Shown here piece after piece: positions 38,963 to 61,599 of a DNA stretch of 64,000 bases (the first letter of the stretch is position 1; the number at the start of each line of letters is the position of its first letter). The notes beneath the pieces were generated by a model. It was not told where the DNA came from. It saw only the letters and a program-made list of their open reading frames with translations, and did not search any database. The DNA comes from Patescibacteria group bacterium (GTDB taxonomy: Bacteria > Patescibacteriota > Minisyncoccia > Phycocordibacterales > Phycocordibacteraceae). The stretch covers positions 35,399 to 99,398 of the forward strand of contig JACDGK010000002.1 in assembly GCA_013815345.1 (NCBI GenBank), read 5' to 3'. The position numbers were made by a program, and so were the translations under genes.

Positions 38963-39048
38963 TGGTGCGCCGGGAAGGATTCGAACCTTCGTAGGCCGAA
39001 GCCGACAGGTTTACAGCCTGTTGTAATTGACCACTCTACCACCGACGC
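38963..39048 (-). tRNA. tRNA-Tyr (anticodon GUA), CCA encoded, long variable arm
   Basis: Hand-folded: acceptor GCGUCGG/CCGGCGC, D-stem GUAG/UUAC, anticodon stem ACAGG/CCUGU with loop CUGUAAA, variable arm CGGCUUCGGCCUAC, T-arm GAAGG-UUCGAAU-CCUUC, ACCA 3' end. Confidence 0.85.
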
Positions 39049-39075
39049 AATACTGGAACTATAGCGGGATTAGTC

Positions 39076-40347
39076 TTATTTTTCAATCGTAAGAAGTGCT
39101 ACCTGCTTGCCCCGTCGAAGGAGGACGAGATTGTCTGAAAAATGAGCAGAAATAAGCATGGTCTCCGGACTTTCAATAGTTTCGCCATTCAGAGAAACTC
39201 CCTTACTTTCGATAAGTCTTCGTGCATCTGATTTTGAGGTGGATAGGTTGCTGGCGATTAACGCATCAATAATAGAAAATCCTTGCTGCAGCTGACTGGA
39301 AGAAAGAGTAATCGAAGGGGCTTCTTTAACAAGCATCAGGCGTTCGCTGCTCGAGAGTTCAGAAAGCGACTTCCCACTAAAAAGTGCATCGGATACGGCG
39401 GCGGCGTTCGCCGCCGCCTCTTTCCCGTGCACGCTTTCGGTCACGAGCTGCGCAAGCATTCTCTGAGCGCCTCGCCTGCCGGGGTTACGGCTATGCAGCT
39501 CTACGAGCGCATTAATCTCCGCAAGGGGCATGAAAGTATAAAACTTTAAGAATTTGTCTACGCTTTCATCCGGTTGATTCAACCAAAACTGATAAAACGC
39601 AAACGGCGAAGTCTTCTGAGGGTCAAGCCATATCGCATTCCCTTCTGATTTGCCAAACTTCTTTCCATTTGCATCTGTGATGAGCGGACAGGTAAAAGCG
39701 AACGCTTCCCTTCCTGCTTTCTTTCTAATAAGTTCTACGCCTGAAAGAATGTTGGTCCATTGATCTGAACCGCCGATCTGCAGATCGCAGCCGTATTTCT
39801 CATTTAGCACAAGATAGTCGTATCCCTGGAGAAGCGCATAGGCAAACTCTGTGTAGGAAATGCTCTCATCTGGAGTTTCGAGACGACGAGCAATAATGTC
39901 ACGTTTGATAAGTTCATTGATGGTGAAATGCTTGCCGATATCCCGAAGAAAATCCACCAGTTTTACTTTGAGAAGCCAGTCGGCATTATCGACAAGGGTC
40001 ACTCGACTGCCGATAATATTCTGCATCTGTGCACGGATCGCTTTCTTGTTCTTTTCAATGATCTTTATATCTTGTAATTGACGCTCACCCTTTTCGCGAG
40101 GGTCGCCGATCATGCCGGTTCCCCCACCAGCCAAAAGGATGATTTTATGACCAGCGTCTGCAAGCCGTTTCATAAGAAGAACCACTACCAGATTTCCTGC
40201 TTGCATGGAATCAGCAGAAGGGTCCACACCGAGATATACCGTTCTCTTTTTGGAGAATATTATTTCGGGGTCAGCGGAGTGGTGCTCTATGAGTCCTCGC
40301 TCTTTTAATTCCTGTACAAAATCCATATAGGAACGAGTATACGACAT
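39076..40347 (-). CDS. tyrS: tyrosyl-tRNA synthetase
   Basis: HIGH-region (GVDPSADSMQAGNL), KFGKS (KMSKS), C-terminal S4 domain. Confidence 0.9.
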   Translation of the reverse strand: MSYTRSYMDFVQELKERGLIEHHSADPEIIFSKKRTVYLGVDPSADSMQAGNLVVVLLMKRLADAGHKIILLAGGGTGMIGDPREKGERQLQDIKIIEKNKKAIRAQMQNIIGSRVTLVDNADWLLKVKLVDFLRDIGKHFTINELIKRDIIARRLETPDESISYTEFAYALLQGYDYLVLNEKYGCDLQIGGSDQWTNILSGVELIRKKAGREAFAFTCPLITDANGKKFGKSEGNAIWLDPQKTSPFAFYQFWLNQPDESVDKFLKFYTFMPLAEINALVELHSRNPGRRGAQRMLAQLVTESVHGKEAAANAAAVSDALFSGKSLSELSSSERLMLVKEAPSITLSSSQLQQGFSIIDALIASNLSTSKSDARRLIESKGVSLNGETIESPETMLISAHFSDNLVLLRRGKQVALLTIEK

Positions 40348-41982: not shown

Positions 41983-43050
41983 TTAAGGTGAAATTTTTAC
42001 CAAATGATCCGAAAAAGCAAACTGATAGCGTCCTGAGGGCAACGGTCGTTTAAGAATAATGGCTTTTGCGGCATAGCAAAGTATGGCACCTCGCAAAAAC
42101 GAAGATTCAGCAAGTTGTGGAATGCCCACGAGAGTCTTTCCAAAAGCTTCGAACGATTCTAGGAGTCTCGTGTCAAGATATTCCACTCCCATAAAATCAC
42201 GAGCCAAAGCAACTTTTTCATGAGGAAGCAGGTGCATGCTGCTGGGCGACGCAATCGTTTCATACACGTGTGGCTTCATAAGATTGTTAAGAATAGGAAG
42301 TTCTGCATCTTCATCAAAACGCTCTACATCAAGCAACACACCTTCTGCATTGCCGGTAACCATGATTACAGGAATGCGATTCGATCGAGCTTCTTTCCGC
42401 AGAGCAATCTTAAGAGGCAGCGCATCCATTTCCTCCACTATGAGATCGACTTTTGGGTTTTGCAAAAAAAGTGAAAGGTTGTCGGGAGTCAGTCCCGCTT
42501 CATACAACTCTAGTTTGTAGTAAGGATCAATCTCGAGGATTTGTCGCGCGGTAAGAGTCGATTTATTAATGCCAAGGTCACACAAACCAGCCCTAAAACG
42601 ATTGAGGTTGGTGAGCGAGAGCGGATCAAAATCAGCGAGCTTCATGTCGGTCGAGCCTCCCTCCAGCGCTATGCACACCGCACCGGGATTTCCCACATTT
42701 AATCCAGCAAACGCAATGTTCGCTTTTCCGAACTGTTCCTGCTCACTCGTGGTAAGCAATTCACGATTACGATTGGTGCGCAATTCACGATATGCTTCAG
42801 GTCCTACTATCCGTACGATAGTGTTTCGCCAGGGATACTCGACAAAGAACTCCCCAGGCTTGTCGACAAGCTCTGTGGGAGTTTTTCCCACAGATCGCGG
42901 ATCGCGAATTTGTGCTAGTTCTGAAAGTTGTTCGTCATAGGTATCAATAACGCGAGCTCCTTCTTTTTTTTGGAAATTTGCGATTTCAATACTGTCCTCT
43001 GGATCGTGTGGATTCAAGAGACGAATGAGCTGCGATACAGGTTGTGGCAT
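41983..43050 (-). CDS. ThiF/MoeB/E1-like adenylyltransferase-family protein with about 100-aa N- and C-terminal extensions
   Basis: Rossmann Gly-loop FAGLNVGNPGAV, DFD...LTNLNRF (cf. ThiF D-x-D...SNLNRQ), ...VIMVTGN; no CxxC zinc motif, no rhodanese domain. Confidence 0.7.
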   Translation of the reverse strand: MPQPVSQLIRLLNPHDPEDSIEIANFQKKEGARVIDTYDEQLSELAQIRDPRSVGKTPTELVDKPGEFFVEYPWRNTIVRIVGPEAYRELRTNRNRELLTTSEQEQFGKANIAFAGLNVGNPGAVCIALEGGSTDMKLADFDPLSLTNLNRFRAGLCDLGINKSTLTARQILEIDPYYKLELYEAGLTPDNLSLFLQNPKVDLIVEEMDALPLKIALRKEARSNRIPVIMVTGNAEGVLLDVERFDEDAELPILNNLMKPHVYETIASPSSMHLLPHEKVALARDFMGVEYLDTRLLESFEAFGKTLVGIPQLAESSFLRGAILCYAAKAIILKRPLPSGRYQFAFSDHLVKISP

Positions 43051-43077
43051 AGGATCATTCTACGACATCGGATCGAA

Positions 43078-44118
43078 TTACGAGCGGCGAAGTTTGTCTT
43101 TAAGAGGGATACGGGGAGTCATCCAGTCAACTTCCCCATCAATTTTTCCTGCCGCAAAGAGAAATTGGAGCGGCGACTGAAGAGTAAAAGCCACAGTTGC
43201 CGCCGCGCGTGTATCTTCATATTCTACTGAGGCGACAAAAACTGAGTAGTCAAAACCTTGAGCACACAGGGTAAGGGCCGCATGCGATGCCTGAAAACCC
43301 ACTCCCAGCCAGCCAATAAAGGACTCTTCTGCCCCAAACCCAACGACTGCTTTTGAGCTGGCTATAGCGCCAAAATTAAGTTTTGAAAGCACTGGGCCCA
43401 TATTAAGGAAGCGGATCATCGTAGGTAGGATCCATGATAAGATCACTGGCTGATTTAACGAGTACCCCGGTAAACCGGTCCTCTTGCGAGAACCGGTTGG
43501 AGTAATCCAATAAGACATTTCATTCCTAAACATTGGTAAGGCATAGACGCGCAATATATTTTTTGCCGTCTGCTCAGCGACAATTTTAATTTTTTCTTTC
43601 TCGATGAGTGTGGCTACTTCAGGAGGTCGTAAATCATGAGGGGTCAACGAGGAAGGTTGTCGGAGTTGGATAAGTAAGTCTTCAGGAATCTCCACGTTTG
43701 GATTAAAAAGACCCCGTCGGTTTCGACGCGTAAAAATGGCTCGGATCAAAGATTCATAGGTTTCATCAATAGTGCCGGTCGATAGTTCAAATGTTATATC
43801 AGCAATATGATCGCCCGTTGCATCGATAGTAAAATGCGTCGACATTCCAAAAAACGCCGTGATGCTTGAAATGTGGTGGAGAAGAAATCCGATGCTTACA
43901 TATGAATATCGTCCGACAGAATCTGAGTAGGGCAACAAAATGGAGGTATCTCTATACACAGAGAGTCTTTCTTTGTGTATCTTAAAAAGCCACGGTTGAC
44001 TGTTATGAGTGGAGGGCGCTCTCGTTGCTGCATTCAAAACATACGTCATTTGTTCCTCAAGTACACCAGAAAAGGGAAAGTTGTCTTTAAAGGCCGCGAG
44101 CGTGATGGGGACAGACAT
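43078..44118 (-). CDS. nitroreductase-superfamily protein, tandem-domain (SagB-type dehydrogenase-like)
   Basis: RAPSTHNSQPW nitroreductase FMN-binding signature near N-terminus; 346 aa, consistent with two nitroreductase-fold halves. Confidence 0.65.
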   Translation of the reverse strand: MSVPITLAAFKDNFPFSGVLEEQMTYVLNAATRAPSTHNSQPWLFKIHKERLSVYRDTSILLPYSDSVGRYSYVSIGFLLHHISSITAFFGMSTHFTIDATGDHIADITFELSTGTIDETYESLIRAIFTRRNRRGLFNPNVEIPEDLLIQLRQPSSLTPHDLRPPEVATLIEKEKIKIVAEQTAKNILRVYALPMFRNEMSYWITPTGSRKRTGLPGYSLNQPVILSWILPTMIRFLNMGPVLSKLNFGAIASSKAVVGFGAEESFIGWLGVGFQASHAALTLCAQGFDYSVFVASVEYEDTRAAATVAFTLQSPLQFLFAAGKIDGEVDWMTPRIPLKDKLRRS

Positions 44119-44140
44119 GCCTCAAATCCTACCATGCACG

Positions 44141-45694
44141 CTACGCTGCGGGACGAATGACCCACGGTTGTTTTATTCCGGGCTTAAAGTACAGAGGGTC
44201 TTCATACTGCCAAAATACGAGACGGGGCTCGGCTCGCTTTCCCATAAAATCTGAGAGTTCATGGAATTCTGAGTTTTTCTCGCGAAGATTTTTAAGAATT
44301 TCGCTTTGGAGTTCTGAGACGAAAATCTTTCCCGCCTCCTTTTGAGGTTTTAATTCAATATTGATTTCAAGATATTGATCCTCGTTATGGTCATATTTCG
44401 TGGTTAAAGTGAGCTTTCCGGTGAGCGTAGTATGGAATCGTCTATCAAGTAAGACTTCTTTGATTGTTTCAGGATAAATCTGCAAGCCATAGAGCGTCGT
44501 TGCTAGATCAATGCGTTCATAGACATACACAAAGGGTAGTTCAAGCACTTGCTTTGAAATACCAGCAGTTCGGGCTTCTTTCATAATGTCGATCTTGTGG
44601 GTCTTACAGCGATCTACCATCTCTCTGAATGTGTACACGCCTCCATGATCCCCTATCGAGTAACGAGCAAGCGGTATAGAGCTATCACCGGTCACGAGTA
44701 TCTCCCCATTAGGTGCCTCAAATGAAACAGAATCGGGAATGTATTGAGCAAGCGTCGGTGTTTTTGTGGTTCCTCTGAAAAGATCCGTAAAAAGTTTCTC
44801 GTTATTCGTGGCGAGACGACGAATAAGAATGGAGAGCGGGGTCTCAAAAGCCATAGTGCCAATATCAGCGCTTCCATAAATGTTAATGGCATCCGTAAGA
44901 ATGTTTTTTATCCCCACCTTTTCAGCAACGTGATCGCGAAACCGTTCAGTAAAAGCTTCTGCAGCAAAAAGAAGCATCACCCGGTGCTTTTCGAATGAAA
45001 TGCCTTCCTCGATCGCCTCATCAATAACGTCCTTGAGAAAAGGCGGATACCCGGCCAAAATTATCTGATCATACTGCGGCGCAAGATCGCGCAAGGTCTT
45101 TAAGATTTCGCTCTTATTGATACCCGGTGTAAGTATGGAAATCGGGTATCCTCGACGACTCATGAGTTCAAATGCCTGATAGGTGATAAGTCCTCCTATC
45201 CATACTCCCATGCCAAAACACACGATAACCAGAGTCGAGGAATTTAGTTTAAGCGAACTTGTTCGATAAATAAGTTCATGTATCAATGAAGAGCGTTCAT
45301 CAACCTCATGTGATCGTGCAAAGTAGGTTGGCTTTCCTGTGGATCCTGAAGTGGAAGTAAGAATGTGGGGCGAAAGTAGAGAACCGCGCCAAAAAAGTTC
45401 ATTAAAATCTGACGGATGAAGATAATTTTTCTTCGAAATTGAAGGGACGGTGGAGAAGTCTTCGAGTGTACTAATATTCTTTCGTTTTATTCCCTGAGAC
45501 CGAAGGAATTTCTTGTAGGCCGGAACCTTTTCAGCCATACGTTCAAAAAGTCGAACGACGTGCTCTTGATTGATACGGGTCCATTCTGCACTGGTATGGC
45601 TTCGAAGGCGCTTAAAGAAAGCGCCTGCGCTCGGTGTTTCTATAGCGTTTGAGAATTTCTTCCGTATCGTCATTGTTACCGTCTTACTGTCCAT
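44141..45694 (-). CDS. ANL-superfamily adenylate-forming enzyme, PaaK/coenzyme F390 synthetase/CapK-like
   Basis: P-loop TSTSGSTGKPTYFARS (SSGTTGKP-type), A-domain core motifs, 517 aa. Confidence 0.7.
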   Translation of the reverse strand: MDSKTVTMTIRKKFSNAIETPSAGAFFKRLRSHTSAEWTRINQEHVVRLFERMAEKVPAYKKFLRSQGIKRKNISTLEDFSTVPSISKKNYLHPSDFNELFWRGSLLSPHILTSTSGSTGKPTYFARSHEVDERSSLIHELIYRTSSLKLNSSTLVIVCFGMGVWIGGLITYQAFELMSRRGYPISILTPGINKSEILKTLRDLAPQYDQIILAGYPPFLKDVIDEAIEEGISFEKHRVMLLFAAEAFTERFRDHVAEKVGIKNILTDAINIYGSADIGTMAFETPLSILIRRLATNNEKLFTDLFRGTTKTPTLAQYIPDSVSFEAPNGEILVTGDSSIPLARYSIGDHGGVYTFREMVDRCKTHKIDIMKEARTAGISKQVLELPFVYVYERIDLATTLYGLQIYPETIKEVLLDRRFHTTLTGKLTLTTKYDHNEDQYLEINIELKPQKEAGKIFVSELQSEILKNLREKNSEFHELSDFMGKRAEPRLVFWQYEDPLYFKPGIKQPWVIRPAA

Positions 45695-45718
45695 GGAATT
45701 TATTATAACACACGTAAT

Positions 45719-46741
45719 CTATTTTGGAAATAGGGTGGAGAATATATCCAAAACGAAGGGCATATCCTTCGGAGAAGGAACTCCCATGCGGAGAGTTGAA
45801 TGTAATAATTCCTTTGCTTCTGTAAATTTACTCATAGACTCTCCTATTGCTACTCTAACACCCTTCGCTCGTAATTCGTCCGCCAGAGTGTGCGCATTGG
45901 GTACTCGGATAAGAATGAAATTTGTTTCAGAGCTATATATCCTAATGCCGGAAAGACGCGAAAGCGCACTGCTAAAGTAATCCCGTTCTTGTATAACCAT
46001 TTGACGACGTACGCGAATTGATTCTGTTCGCCGCATTCCCTCCTCCGCTGCAAACATACTCATATGCGCAATGGGCCAAGGCAACATACGCTGCTCCATT
46101 TTTCTGATTATTTCGGGCGCGGCGATACAGTAGCCAACTCGAGCACCCGAAAGACCAAAACCTTTTGAGAGGGTGCGAATGATCACGAGATGAGGTGTTT
46201 GAAGTAAGAAAGGCAAAAGCGTCTTACCAGAAAATTCAAAATACGCTTCATCAGATACCAGCAGTACGTCACTTTCTTGAGCAGTGGTAACTATTCTTTC
46301 TATCGTCTCTTCAGGAATACTACAACCCAGAGGATTATTAGGTTGGCATAAAAAAAGCGCTTTTGCGGTGTCTCGCCGGAGGGCAGTAAGGGTATCAGCA
46401 AGAGGGAACACAAATGCGCCGTCGGTTTCGGTGTAATATACGGGATGTGTTACTCCTCCTACTCGATCCAGTATGGATTCGTATCCATAAAAGGTTGGTA
46501 CCGGAAGTACGGCTTCCCTTCCGTGGTTCACATAGAGCTCCGCAAGTGTTTGAATGGCAGCATCTGAGCCGGGAGTAAGGCAGAGTTGTTCGGGGATAAC
46601 CCCGCTATATTCGGCAATTTGTTTTTTGAGTTCATTGTAATTGGGATACGTTGAAAATTCGTTCTGTGTGTAGGTTTGGAATGCTTTACGAAGCTCCTCA
46701 TCCAGTAGCCAGTAACTCTCATTTTTATCCAACGGAATCAT
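45719..46741 (-). CDS. class I/II PLP-dependent aminotransferase, HisC-like (histidinol-phosphate aminotransferase/CobD family)
   Basis: N-terminal LDKNES (cf. LD.NENP), PLP-lysine motif TLSKGFGLSGARVGY. Confidence 0.75.
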   Translation of the reverse strand: MIPLDKNESYWLLDEELRKAFQTYTQNEFSTYPNYNELKKQIAEYSGVIPEQLCLTPGSDAAIQTLAELYVNHGREAVLPVPTFYGYESILDRVGGVTHPVYYTETDGAFVFPLADTLTALRRDTAKALFLCQPNNPLGCSIPEETIERIVTTAQESDVLLVSDEAYFEFSGKTLLPFLLQTPHLVIIRTLSKGFGLSGARVGYCIAAPEIIRKMEQRMLPWPIAHMSMFAAEEGMRRTESIRVRRQMVIQERDYFSSALSRLSGIRIYSSETNFILIRVPNAHTLADELRAKGVRVAIGESMSKFTEAKELLHSTLRMGVPSPKDMPFVLDIFSTLFPK

Positions 46742-46802: not shown

Positions 46803-47180
46803 TTATCGTTCGAGCAAGAAGAGAACAATGAGAGGCGCGATGAACCACCAGAAGAAGAACGTTGTGGGATCGAAAATAGTGTTAACGATTGGGGGAAATG
46901 CATAGATGCGGGTGATGGCGAAGCTGTGGTATCCGAGTGCGAGGAGAAAACCAATAAGGAGTACTACTTGCAGGATCATCGCAGGAAGACGGGAACGTCC
47001 AGAGCGCGTCACGACACGCTTTACGATGAAATAGGAAACAATCACGAATACTGCGTAGATCACGATCGACAGTATTGTCCGCATCAAAGGCGTACCACCG
47101 ATGGAGAGAACATTTTCGGAATAGGGAAAGATGCTATACACCGCGTAGCCGAGATACAACGAAATGGTAAAAGCATTCAT
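46803..47180 (-). CDS. hypothetical 4-TM membrane protein
   Basis: 125 aa, four hydrophobic helices; first gene of the minus-strand operon. Confidence 0.5.
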   Translation of the reverse strand: MNAFTISLYLGYAVYSIFPYSENVLSIGGTPLMRTILSIVIYAVFVIVSYFIVKRVVTRSGRSRLPAMILQVVLLIGFLLALGYHSFAITRIYAFPPIVNTIFDPTTFFFWWFIAPLIVLFLLER

Positions 47181-47205
47181 CTCTTTAGCATAAACCTAAT
47201 GAAGA

Positions 47206-47313
47206 CTTTGTAATAGAGAATAGGAGTGCATAATTTTATCGCACGCATAATTCTCTGCTGAAAATTTGCTCCACTCGCGCCGACGCGCTGCGTGAGGCGC
47301 TAAAATTATGCAC
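47206..47313. repeat. 108-nt element with 23-bp perfect terminal inverted repeats (gagaataggagtgcataatttta / taaaattatgcactcctattctc)
   Basis: Arms 47206-47228 and 47291-47313 exactly reverse-complementary; 62-nt GC-rich spacer with sub-hairpins; lies between dnaJ stop and the membrane gene start. Confidence 0.6.
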
Positions 47314-47337
47314 TCCTATTCTCCCCCCACGTATCGT

Positions 47338-48432
47338 TTACAGACCTTCTGACTTAAGGTCTTCAATCGCCTTCTTTGCTTTGCCTGAGAGTTTGCGGGG
47401 GAGCGTTGCCGAAAGCTTGATGTAAAGATCGCCGCTGCCACCTTCTGCGTACGCGACCCCTTTATTCCGTATTCGCAAGGTTTCTTCTGTATGACTCATC
47501 ACGGGTATTTTCACTTCGAGGGTTTTATCATCGATGGTGGTAATGGTCACCGTGGTACCAAGAAGTGCGTCCGTGAGTTTTACCGGAAAGTTCATAATAA
47601 GATTTGCACCTTCTTTACGAAATACGGAATGTGGCTTTACATGAACTTTTACATATAGATCACCAGATGCAGCGCTTTTCACCGCTTCTCCAAGACCTGT
47701 CATGCGGATCATTTCCCCATTGTCGATGCCTGCCGGGACAGTAATTTTTATCTCTTCTTCTTTGCGTATTACGCCTCGACCATTGCAATTCGTACATTTT
47801 TCTTTCGGTACTTTGCCGGAACCTTCACATGTAGGACAGGAGCGGACACTCGTGAATTCGCCCAGTACGGAGTCTCGAGTCTCATGAATACGTCCGGCGC
47901 CGTTACAGGTCTTACAGGTTTCAAGCTCAGTGTTAGGTTTTGCACCTGATCCATGACAGACATCACACTGCCCTACTTTCGTAATAAGTACTGAACGTTT
48001 TGCGCCGAGAATTGATTCTTTAAATGAGACTTCAATGTCGAGAGAGATGTCACGGCCTCGTTTCGTGCGACCTCGTCCATTCCCGCCAAAGATATCTCCC
48101 ATTCCTCCGAAGAGATCTGAAAGATCGAACTCAACTCCGCCATTTCCGAATCCTTGGAAATTGCTGAAATCAAAGCCCCCCATGTTGCCGCTGGCGCCTC
48201 CTGCTGCGGGACCCGCACCACCTGCAAACGTTTGGCCATAGGAATCATATTCACGTCGTTTCTTCTCATCTGCTAGGATACTGTATGCCTCGGTTATTTC
48301 TTTAAATTTTGCTTCATCACCATGTGCTTTGTCGGGATGATACTTTTGAGCAAGTTTTCGAAATGCTTTTTTTACATCGTCGCCGCTTGCTTTCTTGTCG
48401 AGACCTAGGATTTCATAATAGTTCTTAGCCAT
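47338..48432 (-). CDS. dnaJ: chaperone DnaJ
   Basis: J-domain with HPD (KYHPDK), G/F region, four CxxCxGxG zinc-finger repeats. Confidence 0.9.
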
Positions 48433-48532
48433 ACGCATTTAATCTATTTGACCACTATACACCTCAATGTTTTTTCAGTAAAACACCCGCTTTAGCGGGT
48501 GTTTTACTGAAAATGTTCGAGTGTCACCTATC

Positions 48533-49042
48533 TTAACAGTGGTACTGATATTGATACTGGTAACCACCATAAGGGTAACTTTGTGACTGATATTGGTACT
48601 GATTGTAAAGTGGTTGCTGATACCCACATCCCGTATTCATTGGCTGCTGATAATAATTGTACGAGTTGTTGTACCAATTATTATTGTACGAAGTGTTGTA
48701 ATTGTTGTTTTGATACTGCCAGGAATTACCGTATCCAGGATAACTATTGTAGTTATTATAACTATTGTTATATGAAGGATATTGGTTCCATTCTTTTAGA
48801 ATACAGTTTGGATCATAGCGACCATTGCAGACGGATCTACCCTGATATCCGCCGTAGTAGGAGTTGTTGTAATTGCTATACCCATTCATATAGCTATTAC
48901 CATACCCGTTGTTGTAGTTATTATAATTTGGATAATACGAAGCAAACGCAGGCGTAGCAAGCAACAGACCCCCCAAGGCTAGGGCACCAGCGGCTACTTG
49001 AGCGAGACGGATTTTTGTAGTCATACGCGTAGACATTAGCAA
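48533..49042 (-). CDS. secreted Tyr/Asn/Gln-rich low-complexity protein
   Basis: Signal peptide ...ALALGGLLLATPAFA; mature region almost entirely Y/N/Q/S/G with 4 Cys; sits between dnaK and dnaJ on the same strand. Confidence 0.5.
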   Translation of the reverse strand: MLMSTRMTTKIRLAQVAAGALALGGLLLATPAFASYYPNYNNYNNGYGNSYMNGYSNYNNSYYGGYQGRSVCNGRYDPNCILKEWNQYPSYNNSYNNYNSYPGYGNSWQYQNNNYNTSYNNNWYNNSYNYYQQPMNTGCGYQQPLYNQYQYQSQSYPYGGYQYQYQYHC

Positions 49043-49087
49043 TAATAAGCTGAACGTATCATGAAGATCGTAACTCGTAAATACCCC

Positions 49088-51022
49088 TTACTCGGAAGGT
49101 TTTTCTGTGAATTCAGCGTCGGTAGCACCAGCTTCTGGAGGGGTACCACCTGGCTGATCGGTTGCCGAAGCATTCTCTTCAGGCGATGTCCCTTCCTTTG
49201 CTGTGTTCTCCGCAACCTTCTCTGCTTGCATCATCGCCTCACCAATCTTTGAAAGTGAGGTGCCAAGGGCTTCACTCGCATTTTTAATGGCTTCCATGTC
49301 GTCACCTTCACGTGCGGTTTTGAGGGTTGCAATCTTTTCATTTACTTCGGTGACGATTGCAGCGTCAACCTTGTCACCGTTATCTTTGACTGCTTTTTCT
49401 GCGGTGTAGACCATTTGTTCAGCAAGATTTTTTGCTTCAACTATTTCTTTTCGCTTCGCATCTTCTCCAGCGTGCGTTTCGGCATCCTGGCGCATCTTCT
49501 CAATATCGGCGGTCGAAAGGCCAGTTGAACCTTCGATACGTATTGACTGTTCCTTGCCCGTTGTTTTTTCCTTTGCTTTCACTGTGAGAATACCGTTGGT
49601 GTCGAGATCAAAGGTGACTTCTACCTGCGGAAGGCCGCGCGGAGCAGGCGGTATGCCGTCAAGCATGAATTTGCCCAACGACTTGTTGTCGGTAGCCATA
49701 GCTCGCTCTCCTTGGACTACGTGGATTTCTACGCTGGTCTGGTTGTCAGCAAAGGTTGAGAATGTTTGTGAACGAGAAGTCGGGATGGCAGTGTTGCGCT
49801 CTACCAACTTAGTCGCAACTCCTCCTGCGGTCTCGATCGAGAGAGAAAGCGGGATGACATCGACAAGAAGAATATCTTTCACGTCCCCCTGAAGAATACC
49901 TGCTTGAATGGCCGCACCAATGGCCACCACTTCATCTGGGTTTACAGTAAGATTGGGTTCTTTTCCAAAGATTTTTTTTACTTCTTCCTGGATTTTAGGC
50001 ATGCGGGTCTGACCTCCTACCATGACGATTTCGTTGATATCAGAAGCTTTGAGACCTGCCGCTTCAAGTGCACGTTTCGTGATGTCTACCGAACGATTAA
50101 TGTATTCATCTGCAAGAGATTCAAGGGTCGAACGACTGAGTTTTATGAGGAAGTGTTTAGGGCCATCGGCATCAGAGGTGATAAACGGAATATTTACTTC
50201 TGTTTCAGCGGCGGTCGAAAGCTCATGCTTTGCTTTCTCTGCAGCTTCGTCAAGACGTTGAAGGGCAAGAGGGTCCTTTGTAACATCAATACCGCTTTCC
50301 TTCTTAAACTCATCCGCCAGATAGCGAACGATCTTTTGATCGATGTCGCGACCGCCCATATGTGCGTCACCGTCGGTTGACTTCACCTCAACCACGTCAT
50401 CACCTACTTCAAGTATCGATACGTCGAAGGTACCGCCGCCGAAGTCATAGACAGCAATTTTTTCATCTTTCTTTTTGTTAAAGCCATACGCGAGTGCGGC
50501 GGCTGTCGGTTCATTAATGATGCGTTTTACATCAAGGCCAGCGACCTGCCCCGCTGCCTTCGTCGCGTTTCGTTGTGCATCGTCAAAATACGCAGGCACG
50601 GTAATGACTGCCTCAGTAATTTTCTCACCAAGCTTTGCTTCGGCATCTGCCTTAAGCTTGCCAAGAATCATGGCTGAGACTTCCTCTGGTCGGTAGTCTT
50701 TCTCTCCCAAATGAACGAGTGCACCACCGTCAGGACCAGCTTTTATCTCGTACGGGACGACTTTTTGATCGCTCTGCACAGCCTCATCATCAAAACGATG
50801 ACCCATGAAGCGCTTGATGCCGTAAATGGTGTTCTTTGGATTCGTGACGGCTTGTCGTTTTGCAAGTGTTCCAACGAGTCGTTCGCCATTCTTTGCAATA
50901 GCCACGACTGAAGGTGTGGTGCGTGCACCTTCTGAGTTTTCAAGCACACGCGGCTCACCTCCTTCCATGATAGCCATGGCGGAGTTCGTGGTCCCCAGAT
51001 CGATACCTAGAATTTTTGCCAT
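49088..51022 (-). CDS. dnaK: chaperone DnaK (Hsp70)
   Basis: [18 protein letters not shown], full Hsp70 architecture, 644 aa. Confidence 0.95.
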
Positions 51023-51113
51023 AGTTTTTTAAAATTAACTTGTAACACCGCTTTATATCTTATTTTACACCTTTTAGTTTTTGAGTTCAAATCGGCGCGT
51101 TCACCCTTTACCA

Positions 51114-51668
51114 CTATCCTTCATCAAAATGTGACACCCGTACTTTCGCCGGTCGCAACACCATGTCACCAATTTTCCAGCCAGTCTCGAGCACTGCGGT
51201 TATATGGTCATCATTCTCTTTGGATTCTGCATTATCTTGCCCTAAGGCTTCATGAAGCAAGGGATCAAATTGTTCGTCAATCGCCCCGAACTGGGTAAGG
51301 CCTAGCGACTGTGCGGCTCCCTCAAGTTGCTTAACAATACCTTCAAATCCTTCAGGAAGCACTCCGCTCATCTGCGCTCGCTCGAGAGAATCAATGGCAG
51401 GAAGAAATGCTTTAGCGGCAACAATGGTGCCGAGTAGAATTGCCGCTTTTTTTTCCTCCTCGAATCGTTTAAGCGCATTCACATAGTCAGCTTTAGCACG
51501 TTGCCAGCCGTCAAGGTTTTCGAGCTTTTCTTTTTTCACTACCTCGAGCTCCTTGCGAAGTTTCGTGACTTTTGTATCTGCACGATCCTCAAGGGCAGCG
51601 ATATCTTCCTCGCTTTCGCCAGTAGATTCTTCGCTATCGTGTTCTATGACTACCTCATCGTCATCCAT
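51114..51668 (-). CDS. grpE: nucleotide exchange factor GrpE
   Basis: Acidic N-terminus, coiled coil, C-terminal GrpE beta-domain; directly upstream of dnaK. Confidence 0.85.
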   Translation of the reverse strand: MDDDEVVIEHDSEESTGESEEDIAALEDRADTKVTKLRKELEVVKKEKLENLDGWQRAKADYVNALKRFEEEKKAAILLGTIVAAKAFLPAIDSLERAQMSGVLPEGFEGIVKQLEGAAQSLGLTQFGAIDEQFDPLLHEALGQDNAESKENDDHITAVLETGWKIGDMVLRPAKVRVSHFDEG

Positions 51669-51704
51669 ACATTGAATATACAGGAAAAAATTGTTCTCTC
51701 AACA

Positions 51705-52592
51705 TTACACTTTCACACTCACTTTTTCTTTGCACTCTATCGAGCAAAATGTCTTTCCATTAGGTTCGAAACAATCAACACAAACGAGAAAATGGAGGTG
51801 ACAGAAGTTGTTGGCGCAGTTTATGTACTGTTCGGTGGTAGCGTTGCAGAGGTGACAAACGCCGATGATTTCTCGATCGCCGCCGAAATCCATCGTGAGT
51901 CGCTGATCGAAGGTATAGAGTGTACCGAGAAAATCTTCTCCTGGATACTTTTCCATATAGCTATGTATGCCGTCTTGAAGCTGATACACGTCAGTAAAAC
52001 CACTACTCATAAGATAAGCCGACATTTTCTCGCAGCGGACTCCCCCAGTGCATACGGTCACGACTTTCTTATCCTTAAGTGATTCAAGCTTCGGAAGTGT
52101 CTGAGGAAGATCACGAGAGTTTTCAAGGCCAGGATTGATAGAGTCTTTAAAATGCCCGGATGCGAATTCATAGTCATTGCGCATGTCTACTACTACAAAA
52201 TCCTTTTCATTCGCATACCAAGAACGAAGCTCTTTGGGTGAGAGATGCGGTGCTGTCTGAATACGAGGATCAACTTTTTCTTGAGGAAAATGTGTTCCTA
52301 CTATTTCGTCTCGTACTTTCACTGACAATTTTGGAAATGTGTTGCCTTGTCCCGCGCTCCGTTTGATACTCATGTTCGATAATCGGCCATCTTGTATAAG
52401 CTCTTGGACAAACGCTTCGGTATCCTTCACTATCCCTTCAAAGGTGGCATTGATGCCTTCTTCCGCAATAATCGCCCGACCTAAAAGTGAATGTTTTTTG
52501 GCAAGCTCACGAATCCAGCCCGCAAGTTTCTGCGGATTTTCAATGGTCACATATTTATAGAAAAGTAGTACTTCGTAGGACGAATGGCTCAT
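51705..52592 (-). CDS. trhO: rhodanese-domain protein, UPF0176/TrhO (tRNA uridine(34) hydroxylase) family
   Basis: N-terminal VLLFYKYV hallmark, rhodanese active-site Cys loop CTGGVRCEK, C-terminal Cys-rich tail. Confidence 0.8.
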   Translation of the reverse strand: MSHSSYEVLLFYKYVTIENPQKLAGWIRELAKKHSLLGRAIIAEEGINATFEGIVKDTEAFVQELIQDGRLSNMSIKRSAGQGNTFPKLSVKVRDEIVGTHFPQEKVDPRIQTAPHLSPKELRSWYANEKDFVVVDMRNDYEFASGHFKDSINPGLENSRDLPQTLPKLESLKDKKVVTVCTGGVRCEKMSAYLMSSGFTDVYQLQDGIHSYMEKYPGEDFLGTLYTFDQRLTMDFGGDREIIGVCHLCNATTEQYINCANNFCHLHFLVCVDCFEPNGKTFCSIECKEKVSVKV

Positions 52593-52630
52593 TGAGACAA
52601 TTGTACCAAAATCACTTCATTTAGGTAAAG

Positions 52631-52692
52631 AAACACGCCAGAAGAAAATCGCAGCGAAAGCACTCAGGCTGCGATTTTCTTCTGGCGTGTTT
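52631..52692 (-). terminator. 25-bp perfect-stem hairpin downstream of the large secreted-protein gene (probable terminator)
   Basis: aaacacgccagaagaaaatcgcagc-gaaagcactcag-gctgcgattttcttctggcgtgttt; lies between convergently ended genes. Confidence 0.5.
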
Positions 52693-52702
52693 CTTGTGCT
52701 AC

Positions 52703-54427
52703 TTAATTTACTTGGAAACTACGCGTATTGCTTGCCTGACCATTTGGCCCTGTTACATAGATCAAGTAGGCTCGGGGGGTAACTTCTACGACAGGTTGTG
52801 TACACGAAAATGTTGAGGTCCAGAGATCGCAACCTGATACAGCGCGAGGGATCGTGTAGTAGATCACCGTGCCATTATTATAGGATTGCAGATTTCGCAT
52901 GCCACCGATTCCAAAATGAACCGTATTTCCATAGGTTGCGAAACCGCTTCCCTGGATGGCAATCGTTGTCCCTACGCTTCCCTGCTGGGGCGAAAGATAC
53001 GAGATGTTTGAAGATCCGCCACCATTGTTTGAGCCTGATACAACAACCGTGAGGTTGTAGCTCGTATAAGAACCCGAGTTCCCTCTCGCAGTGAATTGAA
53101 TAGTGTAGGTACCTGAGTTCTGGTACGTGTGGCTGAGTGATACCGAACCATTGTTGGAAATAAATGCTTGCTGGCTTGTGCTATTTCCGCTTTGATCCTG
53201 CCAGTTGGCGGTTACGGTAACTTGCTCGTTTACGGTATCAGTAAGGTATACAACATAGGTATTCGTAGTGCCCGTCGTAACATTTGTCGGACCGTTTACG
53301 CTCGTAATCGATACGGTACCGTTCTGGTTACCATTGTTCGTTAAGACAAACTGAACGGTATTACTCGTAGCACCATAACTATTCGTTATCGAGACAGGAT
53401 AGCTTGTCGAATAAGAATTCGTATTAGTCAGATTGTAGGGAACGGTAAACGTGAGCGAAGTGCCATTCGAAGAATAAACATTCGAAATCACACTGTTACC
53501 GAAGCGCACGGTGTTTCCATTAGAAGAGAATCCTGAGCCGTATGCCGTAACCATTGTTGCTCCATTTACGAAGTTTGAAGTGAGGGAGTTAAGGATTATT
53601 GTCTGCTGGTTGGGGTAGCAGAGATTCGAGCCATTGTAGTTGTAACCGTTGTACTGATAGTTGCAGCCGCACTGATTCGTGTTGCCATAGGTGGTACCGT
53701 ACAAAGGACAATTAAACCAAGAATTTGTGAGATTGAATTGCAACGCGTTCGTCGTACCGCGAGAATTTGATACCGAGATAGGATAGTTGCCCGTCGAGAG
53801 CGAAGGTACGATAAACGTAAGCGAGGTTCCATTGCTTGAAATACTGTTTATTGCAGTAGAACCAAAGTGCACGACGTTATTCCAGGAATCAAATCCGGTT
53901 CCATAGAGCGTGACCGACATTCCGGCTGATCCGCTTGTTGCCGAAAGAGAGCTGAGCGAAAGATACGAATAAGTATTGCCGCCATTATACGGAGGATACG
54001 TTGGATAGGCCGGAGGAATAACCGGTGGAATGACTGGATAGGTATTTCCGCCGCCACAACTTACCTGCTGCACTGCTGCACGGGTGAGAGGACCGACAAC
54101 GCTGGTTGGAGGGATTCCGTGTGATGCTTGGAATTGGGCTACGGCTCCTGCGGTGATGGTGCCGAAATAGCCGGTAACAAGGGTGCTCGGAAGATACCCA
54201 CTTCGAGCGAGAAAGCTTTGAAGCTGAGAAACCTGGCCCCCACTAAGAAAATCAGAGGTTCCTATTGTAAGAGGCGCTGTGAGAGTGAGGCATGAGCCGC
54301 TCGTATAGCCTGTTGTCGGATAGGCTGGATTGCCGTAGACCTGTGCGTGAGCCGCTGGAGCAAACGGAAGACTGCCCACAAGGAGGGCCGAAGCGAAGAA
54401 AACAGCAAAAAATGAGGTCTTTTTCAT
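52703..54427 (-). CDS. secreted cell-surface protein with N-terminal peptidoglycan-binding (PG_binding_1-like) domain and repeated Ig/TIG-like beta domains
   Basis: Signal peptide; LQSFLARSGYLP...GYFGTITAGAVAQFQASHGI PG-binding pattern; at least 4 repeats containing GTSLTF/GATS..VQF. Confidence 0.6.
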   Translation of the reverse strand: MKKTSFFAVFFASALLVGSLPFAPAAHAQVYGNPAYPTTGYTSGSCLTLTAPLTIGTSDFLSGGQVSQLQSFLARSGYLPSTLVTGYFGTITAGAVAQFQASHGIPPTSVVGPLTRAAVQQVSCGGGNTYPVIPPVIPPAYPTYPPYNGGNTYSYLSLSSLSATSGSAGMSVTLYGTGFDSWNNVVHFGSTAINSISSNGTSLTFIVPSLSTGNYPISVSNSRGTTNALQFNLTNSWFNCPLYGTTYGNTNQCGCNYQYNGYNYNGSNLCYPNQQTIILNSLTSNFVNGATMVTAYGSGFSSNGNTVRFGNSVISNVYSSNGTSLTFTVPYNLTNTNSYSTSYPVSITNSYGATSNTVQFVLTNNGNQNGTVSITSVNGPTNVTTGTTNTYVVYLTDTVNEQVTVTANWQDQSGNSTSQQAFISNNGSVSLSHTYQNSGTYTIQFTARGNSGSYTSYNLTVVVSGSNNGGGSSNISYLSPQQGSVGTTIAIQGSGFATYGNTVHFGIGGMRNLQSYNNGTVIYYTIPRAVSGCDLWTSTFSCTQPVVEVTPRAYLIYVTGPNGQASNTRSFQVN

Positions 54428-59034: not shown

Positions 59035-60333
59035 CTAACTGCCTGCGGGAGGAGTCGTCACGGTGACTTTGATATGAGAAGGATCAACCGGGAATTTACT
59101 AGTCCAAAACGGCCGTAGAGTAAGCAATGCGCTATTTACTTCCGGAAAGCCAGCCAGGATAGCTTGGGCAGAATCTCTCGTCTTTCCTGCAACTGCTCCT
59201 GCTATTTTCGACGTGTCTACTTTCCAAATAATAGTAGCTGTACCGTTAAGGTTGAAGGAGTAGGTTTGCGCATTTGTCGGATCAGTTGAGCTCGCTGGTG
59301 CCAAGATAAGTTTTGCAACAGAACCAAGTGAGACAGGCTCCCCGCTATAGGTACCCGCTATTTTATACGCTATAGCTTTGGCTAATGCATCCCCGGGGAA
59401 AACCACTGCAGTCAGCGTTCCCTGTTCGCCTACTGCAACCGTACTGGTTGTCGAAGCGGTGTCCGGCAATGCTTGAAAGGATGTCAGCGTGCTTCCGGGA
59501 AGTAACACATATCCTGCAGGAACTCGCGCATTCAGATCAGTTTGGAGACTTTTAGCTAATGCGGTTTGCAGAATTGCATGTTGAGTGTCATCGGTGCTTT
59601 GACTCACGGCCGCCCGTGTTCCAGAGAATCCTCCCACCATTGCAGTATTTGAGGTTGCAGTGACTTCATCGAATTGCGCAGATCCTTTGAGGCCAGGGAC
59701 AGTAAATGTCGTGGGAGCGACATTGTACGACTCACCAGCCTGATCAGCATATACGGCAATGGTAAGTTTACCTGGGCCCGTAGCAGTGGCCGCTGGCACG
59801 GTGATAGGTGCATGGATATGGAAAATCAAGCCAGTTGGAGTTGCAAATCGTGTACTGTTGATCAATGTCTGGGGTTTTGTTTGAGCATTTGAAACAGTAA
59901 TAGTTCCTTGTGCTGAATCCTTTGCCGTTAACGTACTTTCGGCTGGCACTGAGGCACTAACAGTCTTGGTGATGCTTTCAACAGTGAACGGTAAGTCGCC
60001 GCTTCCTGCCGTTGCCGTGAAAGGACCATTTATATCAGCTGTATGTGATTCGGGGGTGATAGCAACCTTTGCATCGCCAAAGAGATACAGTGCTCCTGCT
60101 GAAAGCGCGATGACAATAAGAGCAATAAGAGCTGTGCCATAAGGGAAACTTCGACCCGTTCTAATACGCACTCGAGGTGGCGGTTCAGGAGTGGGCGGAG
60201 TGTTCATGAAAGGAGGATTTGGATTTGATGGTGGAATGACGGGAGGAAGTGTGTTGTCCTGTGTATTCATTGCTTCTGCATCCATCATGCGGCGGCGAGA
60301 AGGCGGAATTATATCGTTAATAGTTCTAGGCAT
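59035..60333 (-). CDS. hypothetical single-pass membrane protein with Pro-rich cytoplasmic N-terminus and large T/A/S-rich ectodomain
   Basis: 432 aa; TM segment YGTALIALIVIALSAGALYLF; occupies the slot upstream of infA where secY-adk-map normally lie. Confidence 0.5.
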   Translation of the reverse strand: MPRTINDIIPPSRRRMMDAEAMNTQDNTLPPVIPPSNPNPPFMNTPPTPEPPPRVRIRTGRSFPYGTALIALIVIALSAGALYLFGDAKVAITPESHTADINGPFTATAGSGDLPFTVESITKTVSASVPAESTLTAKDSAQGTITVSNAQTKPQTLINSTRFATPTGLIFHIHAPITVPAATATGPGKLTIAVYADQAGESYNVAPTTFTVPGLKGSAQFDEVTATSNTAMVGGFSGTRAAVSQSTDDTQHAILQTALAKSLQTDLNARVPAGYVLLPGSTLTSFQALPDTASTTSTVAVGEQGTLTAVVFPGDALAKAIAYKIAGTYSGEPVSLGSVAKLILAPASSTDPTNAQTYSFNLNGTATIIWKVDTSKIAGAVAGKTRDSAQAILAGFPEVNSALLTLRPFWTSKFPVDPSHIKVTVTTPPAGS

Positions 60334-60434
60334 ATCGAGTGGTAAGCGAAATCATATGTGCTCAAGTATACCCAGTGGTATGTATTTGGAAAGGAGTAGG
60401 TGGGTATACCTGGCGGAATTGATTTTGAGGAAAA

Positions 60435-61568: not shown

Positions 61569-61599
61569 GCGTTTAGTATAGCAAGAACAAAAGTGATCC

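Follow-up and report, generated by a model that had tools for sequence, protein, structure and literature searches.

The Hsp70 chaperone genes of Bacillus-type genomes form a single co-directional operon, hrcA-grpE-dnaK-dnaJ. In Thermus thermophilus, the Hsp70 gene cluster contains an extra element, dafA. The spacing and content of the dnaK-dnaJ interval vary between bacteria, allowing separate regulation, and in Escherichia coli and Salmonella the interval carries the small RNA tpke11 (PMC12077118). Here, a 64-kb stretch of a patescibacterial genome (64,000 nucleotides of contig JACDGK010000002.1, referred to below as the window) was found to have the co-directional order grpE-dnaK-dnaJ on its minus strand, with a gene for a tyrosine-rich signal-peptide protein between dnaK and dnaJ (positions 48533-49036, 167 amino acids, stop codon included). 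As with tpke11 and dafA, an extra element lies inside an Hsp70 cluster; however, tpke11 is an RNA and dafA encodes a cytoplasmic assembly factor acting on chaperones, whereas the element described here encodes a predicted exported protein with a putative promoter and terminator of its own. The locus also differs from the Bacillus-type operon in having no hrcA among the window ORFs scanned and no controlling inverted repeat of chaperone expression (CIRCE) in the window, a promoter-like box for each gene, and a terminator before dnaJ.

The protein itself invites comparison with several described classes. The curli subunits CsgA and CsgB and Pseudomonas FapC are small, Sec-exported, rich in Gln, Asn, Ser and Gly, and meant to self-assemble outside the cell, as the tyrosine-rich protein may do. 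Prion-like low-complexity domains of the FUS type, a class of sticker-and-spacer domains rich in [G/S]Y[G/S] or in Gln and Asn, resemble it in their high content of Tyr, Asn, Gln, Ser and Gly, low charge, predicted disorder and evenly spread tyrosines. Tyrosine-rich cross-linked structural proteins include CotC, CotU and CotG of Bacillus subtilis, plant extensins with their Y-x-Y isodityrosine motifs, and resilin; the likeness lies in a Tyr content of 20-30 %, small size, and enrichment of Y-x-Y in several members of the family described here. Bacteria of the candidate phyla radiation (CPR, or Patescibacteria) spend their lives attached to other cells, and the majority of their surface proteins lack annotation. 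The open reading frame (ORF) in the dnaK-dnaJ gap is almost certainly a real gene of a secreted tyrosine-rich family, which on present sequence searches appears to be undescribed and confined to one Paceibacteria (Patescibacteria/CPR) clade of tiny soil bacteria.

The ORF had been counted from a TTG codon (48533-49042). An ATG at 49036, which gives the protein of 167 amino acids, was taken as the start because the resulting N terminus, M-[ST]-T-R, is common to the relatives; the gene is already called in public assemblies, the window being present on a 117-kb contig of the metagenome assembly GCA_020064125.1 and having been assembled from SRR11719862 as well. By inspection, residues 1-32 (48941-49036, minus strand) have the features of a Sec type I signal peptide, with R4, K8 and R10 as its basic residues, a hydrophobic core of 17 residues and a cleavage site, AFA/S, within TPAFA/SY. 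The protein has no lipobox and no C-terminal anchor. The mature part of 135 amino acids is composed of Tyr (25.9 %), Asn (23.0 %), Gln (11.1 %), Ser (9.6 %) and Gly (9.6 %), which together make up 79 %, and it contains 5 charged residues (~4 %). Four cysteines are found at precursor positions 70, 78, 137 and 167. Both the unusual composition and the four cysteines had been recorded in the first-pass annotation of this DNA and were confirmed. The share of Tyr, Asn and Gln (48.5 %) was by far the highest of any ORF in the window, the next real gene having 22 %. Alignment and an AlphaFold model delimit a Cys loop followed by a predicted short helix, C70-NGRYDPN-C78-ILKE (48791-48829, minus strand), and composition and model confidence delimit a Tyr/Asn/Gln-rich, probably disordered tail with C137 and the C-terminal C167 (48536-48790, minus strand). 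No real tandem repeat or repeat unit was detected in the gene by Tandem Repeats Finder. Its G+C content is low because of its amino-acid content: at third codon positions, G+C was 0.44, compared with 0.43 for dnaK, dnaJ and grpE, and synonymous codon use was mixed, like theirs. A foreign origin, considered on account of the low G+C content, was rejected on account of this agreement with the neighbours.

Searches for relatives were strongly affected by the composition of the protein. Plain phmmer with the whole protein returned no match, not even the protein itself, although it is present in the database searched; this failure is attributed to the composition-bias filter and is not evidence of absence. 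By contrast, tblastn without filters revealed ORFs for tyrosine-rich proteins with signal peptides in the dnaK-dnaJ gap of each of the three closest genomes, and a profile of the non-repetitive N-terminal part (signal peptide and Cys loop) retrieved 8 proteins. A full-family profile run against 1.84 billion representatives gave 30 matches, comprising 29 true members and one false-positive repeat protein. HMMER searches with the whole low-complexity protein thus miss even an identical entry, while the profile of signal peptide and Cys loop recovers the family, and other orphan genes of low complexity may systematically go unnoticed through the same effect of composition. A scan of Joint Genome Institute (JGI) metagenomes with an alignment of four family sequences, of which only the signal-peptide end served as a pattern, confirmed nothing. 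A second JGI scan, in which the Cys loop was represented by a degenerate DNA pattern, gave no matches; this pattern has a single match in the window and also matches loci L005 and L006, and it missed members because it was too strict at the I/L-x positions, where many have V, T or E. No relative of the window protein was found in Pfam, NCBIfam or PDB, nor of nine family members in Pfam (E <= 0.1). A Pfam match to DUF4179 was rejected as a membrane-helix look-alike, being below threshold (19 bits against a cut-off of 30) and covering only the hydrophobic signal region. A literature search yielded no relevant work on tyrosine-rich CPR proteins, on HrcA in Patescibacteria or on secreted prion-like bacterial proteins.

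All members of the family were built alike. The signal peptide, with [AS]PA[FHM]A at its end, leads into a short linker, in many cases D/Y-Y-G-A-x-P; next come a C-x7-C loop and a tyrosine-rich tail that usually ends in YQYQYSY. The loop, counted in 28 of the 33 members, has the consensus V-C-x-[GS]-R-[FY]-D-P-x-C-[IL]-x-K-E, with N-Y-L frequently coming after it, and V69, C70, R73, D75, C78, K81 and E82 were invariant in an alignment of nine sequences. A second Cys pair near the C terminus was present in about one third of members. Lineage-specific secreted low-complexity proteins are a known kind; what is new is this family and its combination of a C-x7-C loop with an exported tyrosine tail.

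The coding nature of the gene was evident from its conservation. Frames were intact across ~30 cluster representatives, and the ratio of non-synonymous to synonymous substitution rates (dN/dS) was 0.15 for the closest pair of relatives, L056 and L058, which supplies the coding support that the first-pass annotation had called for. At the same synonymous divergence, the ratios for this pair were 0.010 for dnaJ, 0.024 for dnaK and 0.030 for the membrane-protein gene that follows dnaJ. The tyrosine-rich gene is under purifying selection, yet evolves about tenfold faster than its neighbours. The chance that the ORF is spurious, an accident of an AT-rich low-complexity spacer, is negligible. An opposite-strand frame of 124 amino acids is open on the plus strand (48583-48957), and the plain phmmer search gave nothing, as would be expected of such an accident. 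However, the shadow frame, which is not a gene, is open because Tyr and Asn codons yield no stops when read in reverse complement, and the phmmer result was an artefact of the composition filter; the idea is refuted by the conservation of frame, signal peptide and Cys loop in ~30 sequences, together with the dN/dS value and a third-position G+C content equal to that of the neighbours.

The first-pass annotation had described the mature protein as prion-like or amyloid-like. By the classical criterion, a protein was scored as Q/N-rich when at least 30 Gln and Asn residues fell within a window of 80 residues. The window protein reached 32 in its best 80 residues and is the extreme case of its family, in which the threshold was reached by only 3 of 33 members. 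Across these 33 members, Asn varied between 6 and 24 % and Gln between 2 and 14 %, while Tyr was conserved at a median of 27 % (range 14-32 %, the low values being fragments) and charged residues made up 2-10 %. Q/N richness is therefore not a family property, and the property under selection, as judged from these sequences, appears to be tyrosine richness in an uncharged polar background, with the Q/N look a local peculiarity. Tyrosines were also spaced in a non-random manner. Adjacent Tyr-Tyr pairs numbered 3 in the window protein against 8.8 expected (z = -2.6) and were depleted in 7 of 10 members (z = -2 to -4), and Y-x-Y occurred more often than expected in 5 of the 10 (z = +2 to +4).

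These figures bear on the proposal that the mature protein is a functional amyloid, in which a Q/N/Y-rich chain under selection for Gln and Asn would form curli-like cross-beta fibres. The Q/N count of the window protein, the near absence of charged or aliphatic residues, and the Y-x-Y enrichment in half of the members examined, which fits beta-strands with a tyrosine face, are all in keeping with such fibres. Against them stand the rarity of Q/N-rich members, an Asn content of only 6 % in L006, and the lack of Y-x-Y enrichment in the window protein itself (z = -1.2). Even aromatic spacing is described for phase-separating low-complexity domains rather than for amyloid cores. The protein further differs from curli and Fap subunits in the dominance of Tyr and in having no curlin or Fap repeats, no imperfect repeat architecture or repeat unit of any other kind, and no Pfam match, and no nucleator or secretion gene of the curli or Fap type (csgB/E/F/G, fapA-F) was found among the larger window ORFs scanned against Pfam (232-44118, 46803-54427 and 59035-61676). 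An amyloid function is on this evidence quite improbable.

Structure prediction with AlphaFold2 and the family alignment gave a model of low confidence, with a mean predicted local distance difference test (pLDDT) score of 45.6. Helices were predicted only in the signal peptide (residues 12-22) and at residues 78-85, just after the Cys loop, whose segment had the highest pLDDT of the model (~62). Throughout the tail (residues 86-167), pLDDT was below 50. The model fits a protein that is intrinsically disordered apart from one small structured module. With an uncharged polar spacer and evenly placed aromatics, the window protein has the attributes of a FUS-like sticker domain, a comparison that concerns how it may work and not its descent. 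In contrast to FUS-type domains, the protein is bacterial and predicted to be Sec-exported, carries a Cys-loop module, belongs to a family that is seldom Q/N-rich, and shares no sequence homology with them.

On balance, and with modest confidence, we favour the explanation that the gene encodes an exported, self-associating, tyrosine-rich surface protein whose link to the chaperone genes is one of position. The protein would be exported through Sec and its signal peptide cleaved. The loop, stapled by a C70-C78 disulfide, and the I/L-x-K-E helix that follows it might then serve as a specific docking element, and the tail of 80-120 residues, nearly uncharged and with about one evenly spaced Tyr in four, could present multivalent stickers outside the cell. 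Contacts between tyrosines could lead to self-association, or to sticking to a polysaccharide or partner surface, and so to a gel, a coat or an adhesive layer. This specific mechanism of extracellular self-association, read from sequence features, is a tentative one and somewhat doubtful in its particulars. Covalent cross-linking, as in the tyrosine-rich structural proteins, meets with several differences. The family carries almost no charge, in contrast to CotC and CotU with their many Lys and Asp residues; its members are predicted to leave the cell by a signal peptide; no homology was seen in the Pfam, NCBIfam and PDB searches; and no oxidase or peroxidase partner was identified for the protein. 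CPR bacteria are not known to form spores.

The order of genes on the minus strand was trhO-like, grpE, dnaK, the 167-residue ORF, a 19-bp terminator hairpin and dnaJ. Pfam confirmed the identities of the flanking genes: grpE (51114-51668; GrpE, E = 2.7e-28), dnaK (49088-51022; HSP70, E = 1.3e-245) and dnaJ (47338-48438; DnaJ, DnaJ_CXXCXGXG and DnaJ_C), with a trhO-like gene of the UPF0176/rhodanese type directly upstream of grpE (51705-52592; UPF0176_N, Rhodanese and Rhodanese_C), all on the minus strand. The true start of dnaJ is probably the second ATG at 48432 (MAKNYY, as in relatives) and not that at 48438. The signal-peptide gene thus lies between dnaK and dnaJ and in their direction, as annotated at first pass, and trhO does abut grpE, the 36-nt spacer between them holding a promoter-like sequence of its own. 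The trhO-like gene was the neighbour of grpE in all clade members with enough contig. An Rfam scan of the window detected one tRNA only and no known RNA element in the spacers.

Promoters and terminators were inferred from sequence conservation. The sequence in the trhO-grpE spacer, TTGAGA-16-TATATT (51675-51702, minus strand), was found by consensus scan 6 nt before the grpE ATG, an arrangement of the leaderless type, and the box is kept in position in relatives as TTTTGAC-17-CATAGT/TATATT. A promoter-like TTGAAC-17-TAAAAT precedes dnaK (51062-51090, minus strand) within a GGTGTAAAAT box conserved across the clade. In 9 of 13 members, the ATG of the tyrosine-rich gene is preceded, at a distance of 6-8 nt, by a perfect TTGACA-17-TAnnnn sequence, which by its match to consensus is predicted to be a strong promoter of the leaderless type. 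Comparison of the window with 12 relatives located a weak counterpart, TTTACG-17-TACGTT (49053-49081, minus strand), and the nearest relative, L059, was also weak, with TTTACA-16-TAAAGT at the corresponding place. In grpE, the tyrosine-rich gene and dnaJ, -10 boxes lie 5-20 nt before the ATG and no Shine-Dalgarno sequence is seen, which suggests that leaderless or near-leaderless mRNAs are widespread in the lineage.

Downstream of the tyrosine-rich gene, folding identified a putative intrinsic terminator (48472-48513, minus strand) with a 19-bp stem, a UAAA loop and flanking U and A runs. Its predicted stability was -36.2 kcal/mol (z = -8.5), and 0 of 200 shuffled sequences were as stable. Equivalent hairpins follow the gene in L004, L005, L006, L059, L062, L063, L066 and L067. 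A promoter-like TTTACT-17-TATAGT (48454-48482, minus strand) before dnaJ overlaps the 3' arm of this hairpin, and relatives with hairpins have a ttgtcgTATAGT-type -10 box (TATAGT/TATACT/TATAAT) 6-20 nt before the dnaJ ATG. Relatives without any gap gene already have a hairpin and a GGTATAGT box within the 50-90 nt that separate dnaK from dnaJ (L009, L010, L015, L018, L030, L033 and L035), and more distant Patescibacteria also have a hairpin between dnaK and dnaJ. With a terminator and a promoter between them, dnaK and dnaJ are predicted to be separate units in this group, and the tyrosine-rich gene sits between the dnaK stop codon and the apparent ancestral dnaK terminator. Internal terminators and promoters of this kind are not those of a single grpE-dnaK-dnaJ operon. 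The first-pass annotation had inferred an operon interrupted by, and co-transcribed with, the signal-peptide gene; the terminator and -10 box before dnaJ, the promoter of the gene's own in most members and the same boundary in relatives without the gene argue against this, and only read-through from dnaK remains plausible. Such read-through is likely in most genomes, the window included, judging from the spacers: no terminator was seen between dnaK and the tyrosine-rich gene in 11 of 12 members, and the 51-nt spacer in the window contains no hairpin. The exception was L056/57, where in L056 a terminator separates the upstream genes from the gene's promoter, so that co-transcription with dnaK is not obligatory.

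The position of the gene was compared across a scan for DnaJ, one genome per species, which gave 52 loci. All loci with 62-80 % DnaJ identity belonged to metagenome-assembled genomes of Paceibacteria/Parcubacteria, from which the source organism was recognised as a CPR bacterium. The tyrosine-rich gene lay directly after dnaK in 13 of 13 readable contexts (the window, L004, L005, L006, L056/57, L058, L059-61, L062, L063, L064, L065 and L066; L067 was too short), and dnaJ lay downstream in all 12 in which the contig continues, the contig of L064 ending after the tyrosine-rich gene. The first-pass suggestion that homologues might occupy the same gap in related genomes was thus borne out. These contexts are not independent, because one acquisition followed by vertical descent is the simplest reading: the seven holders on long contigs formed one clade on a neighbour-joining tree of DnaK and DnaJ, and the DnaJ of holders off the tree was 76-80 % identical to that of the window where measurable. 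In L056 and L058, a gene for a 141-residue protein with an AHSA1/SRPBCC domain lies right after the tyrosine-rich gene and before dnaJ (L056:6485-6910, L058:6503-6928); the AHSA1 Pfam family takes its name from the Hsp90 co-chaperone Aha1. The gap of L056 holds a further gene, a 127-residue orphan (L056:5505-5888).

The position is not peculiar to the tyrosine-rich family. In the wider family, the dnaK-dnaJ spacer was 1-101 nt in 10 of 37 loci and longer than 400 nt in 27 of 37, and in sister lineages it contains a dozen or more small genes that are unrelated. These include a Cys-rich secreted family of ~175 amino acids with 8 invariant cysteines, without a Pfam match and unrelated to the tyrosine-rich family (L025:5390-5917, L024:5387-5917, L028:5407-5937 and L032:5307-5912), a second secreted family (L017 and L022), a lipoprotein-like ORF (L013), other secreted or membrane ORFs (L019, L020 and L007), small cytoplasmic orphans (L011, L012, L023, L027 and L040), and a ParE toxin preceded by a small ORF that presumably encodes the antitoxin (L038:5472-5949). 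Of ten gap genes examined, nine had no Pfam family, the other being the ParE toxin. Homology between the tyrosine-rich family and two of the secreted gap families (A4 and A5) was rejected, with hhalign probabilities of 1-6 % and only the signal peptides aligning. The grpE-dnaK spacer was occupied in 10 of 32 loci and the spacer between dnaJ and the membrane-protein gene in 13 of 40. The whole chaperone cluster is porous, and the dnaK-dnaJ boundary most so.

We therefore regard the dnaK-dnaJ position of the gene as probably architectural and not functional. A boundary made of a terminator and a promoter would tolerate insertions, and different lineages would have filled it with different orphan genes. 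The tyrosine-rich gene would have inserted a single time, after the dnaK stop codon and ahead of the terminator, and been inherited vertically thereafter; it would have acquired or brought its own promoter, with read-through from dnaK perhaps adding to its transcription. The data are explainable without any functional dependence on the chaperones.

Regulatory elements of the chaperone genes were in line with a dismantled operon. As the first-pass annotation had noted, no CIRCE element (TTAGCACTC-N9-GAGTGCTAA) was present, with 0 matches at <=3 mismatches across the 64 kb. The same search detected perfect elements in loci that served as a positive control (L042:1951-1977, L043:1888-1914, L044:2105-2131, L048:1926-1952 and L053:4931-4957) and one with a single mismatch (L051:1617-1643). 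In L042-L044, L048 and L051, the element lies at most ~100 nt upstream of the grpE ORF; in L053, where no grpE was detected, it lies ~1 kb upstream of dnaJ. These loci belong to Komeilibacteria, Falkowbacteria and other distant Patescibacteria. In the Paceibacteria family of the window, CIRCE was absent from all ~45 loci, including those without the tyrosine-rich gene, and its loss at the dnaK locus is real and family-wide. Since the loss extends to loci that lack the gene, the two observations are independent; the loss fits the break-up of the operon into separately promoted genes. Pfam detected no HrcA domain in the larger ORFs at 232-44118 and 59035-61676 or in those at 46803-54427, the scans having passed over the ribosomal-protein block (54.8-58.6 kb) and the last two ORFs of the window. 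As for the HspR operator (HspR-associated inverted repeat, HAIR), a single match with 3 mismatches was discarded, since it was remote from the locus and chance alone would give more. An inverted repeat, TTAGCGTGC...GCACGC, with a CIRCE-like beginning and other arms and spacing, was observed in the dnaK leader, at most 110 nt before the dnaK ATG, in four clade members (ATG at L005:3406, L006:3385, L056:3505 and L058:4012); it was absent from the window, L004 and L059, and could be an mRNA hairpin or an operator.

The main alternative to a purely positional link is that the protein is coupled to the chaperones. Its precursor would be a client of DnaK and DnaJ, kept export-competent without SecB, or it would be a stress-induced extracellular factor, in either case encoded on one heat-inducible transcript. 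In E. coli, DnaK and DnaJ can hold preproteins in an export-competent state. Several of our own observations weigh on this side and against the explanation that we favour. The promoter of the gene in the window is degenerate, with 7 of 12 matches, too few for the consensus scan to report it, and dnaK there, as in nearly all members, is not followed by a terminator; by these features, the window gene may be transcribed mainly as a bicistron with dnaK, leaving room for heat-shock co-regulation. The gene directly follows dnaK in every readable context, and strict retention of this kind is predicted equally by vertical descent and by a functional link. The search of 1.84 billion representatives, which was not aimed at extra copies elsewhere in a genome, gave one protein type, and a second architecture resembling the family was not among its matches. 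In sister lineages, some of the unrelated genes of the gap likewise encode secreted proteins, which might mean that such proteins come to lie behind dnaK for a common reason. The signal-peptide cleavage site was read by eye from the sequence, and the function is proposed from composition.

Coupling is nonetheless unlikely. Most members have a consensus promoter of their own, L056/57 has a terminator upstream of that promoter, and a strong predicted terminator insulates dnaJ from the gene. All seven tree-placed holders fall in one clade, so the 13 contexts amount to about one evolutionary event. In other lineages the gap holds cytoplasmic orphans and a toxin-antitoxin pair, and no heat-shock operator was found at the window locus. 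The functional pairing of an aggregation-prone secreted protein with Hsp70 and Hsp40, which the first-pass annotation had implied, is therefore unsupported beyond possible read-through.

The same porous boundary raises the question of a passenger, a young or de novo gene of little function that arose from the transcribed 3' region of dnaK and persists at a neutral site. The gene occupies precisely the interval from the dnaK stop codon to the hairpin found directly after dnaK in gene-less relatives; it is of low complexity, probably disordered and without homologues outside one clade; its non-synonymous rate is about ten times that of its neighbours; and orphan ORFs occupy the gap in many lineages, all as a passenger would predict. 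However, the dN/dS value indicates purifying selection, the Cys-loop motif is nearly invariant, the signal peptide and its cleavage site are kept across ~30 diverged members, a consensus promoter is maintained, and the gene is kept in every sampled member of the clade. A passenger is very unlikely on these grounds. A composite of several ideas is considered just as improbable: the transcribed boundary after a highly expressed dnaK would be a nursery in which Paceibacteria repeatedly capture or generate orphan genes, often secreted ones; the protein would be a sticker-and-spacer surface gel or adhesive of an episymbiont, phase-separating or cross-linked through tyrosines; and its aggregation-prone precursor would need DnaK from their common read-through transcript to remain export-competent where SecB is lacking. 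The explanation that we favour remains an exported, self-associating surface protein beside the chaperone genes by position.

Further features of the region are recorded here as separate observations. A 125-residue membrane protein without a Pfam family is encoded 3' of dnaJ (46803-47180, minus strand); it is kept throughout the family, tblastn having matched it at almost every locus from L004 to L040. The gene at 52703-54427 (minus strand), which lies two genes upstream of grpE, encodes a secreted protein of 574 residues that has a peptidoglycan-binding domain, three IPT/TIG domains and short, Y/N/G-rich, Cys-containing linkers (for example, CGCNYQYNGYNYNGSNLCYPNQ); this is the second most Y/N/Q-rich real gene in the window. 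On the same strand at 41983-46741, a run of genes for a ThiF-like E1 enzyme, a nitroreductase-like protein of 346 residues, a Pfam-less protein of 517 residues and a class I/II aminotransferase may form a small cluster for modification or biosynthesis. At 38963-40347, a tRNA-Tyr(GTA) adjoins a tyrosyl-tRNA synthetase gene, with a tryptophanyl-type synthetase just beyond; this proximity is probably trivial.

For the lineage, these findings describe a grpE-dnaK-dnaJ operon broken into separately promoted genes, with CIRCE lost and the internal boundaries serving as landing sites for orphan genes. Because the boundaries act in this way, even a striking neighbour of a chaperone gene should not be taken for a functional partner without transcript data. 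The family itself is compact and easily recognised by its signal peptide, C-x7-C loop and tail of ~27 % tyrosine, evolves fast and is probably driven by a strong promoter. If the proposal of an extracellular tyrosine gel, coat or glue is true, the tyrosine-rich protein would be a bacterial, exported counterpart of the low-complexity sticker domains of eukaryotes and, in bacteria that live attached to other cells, a candidate attachment factor.

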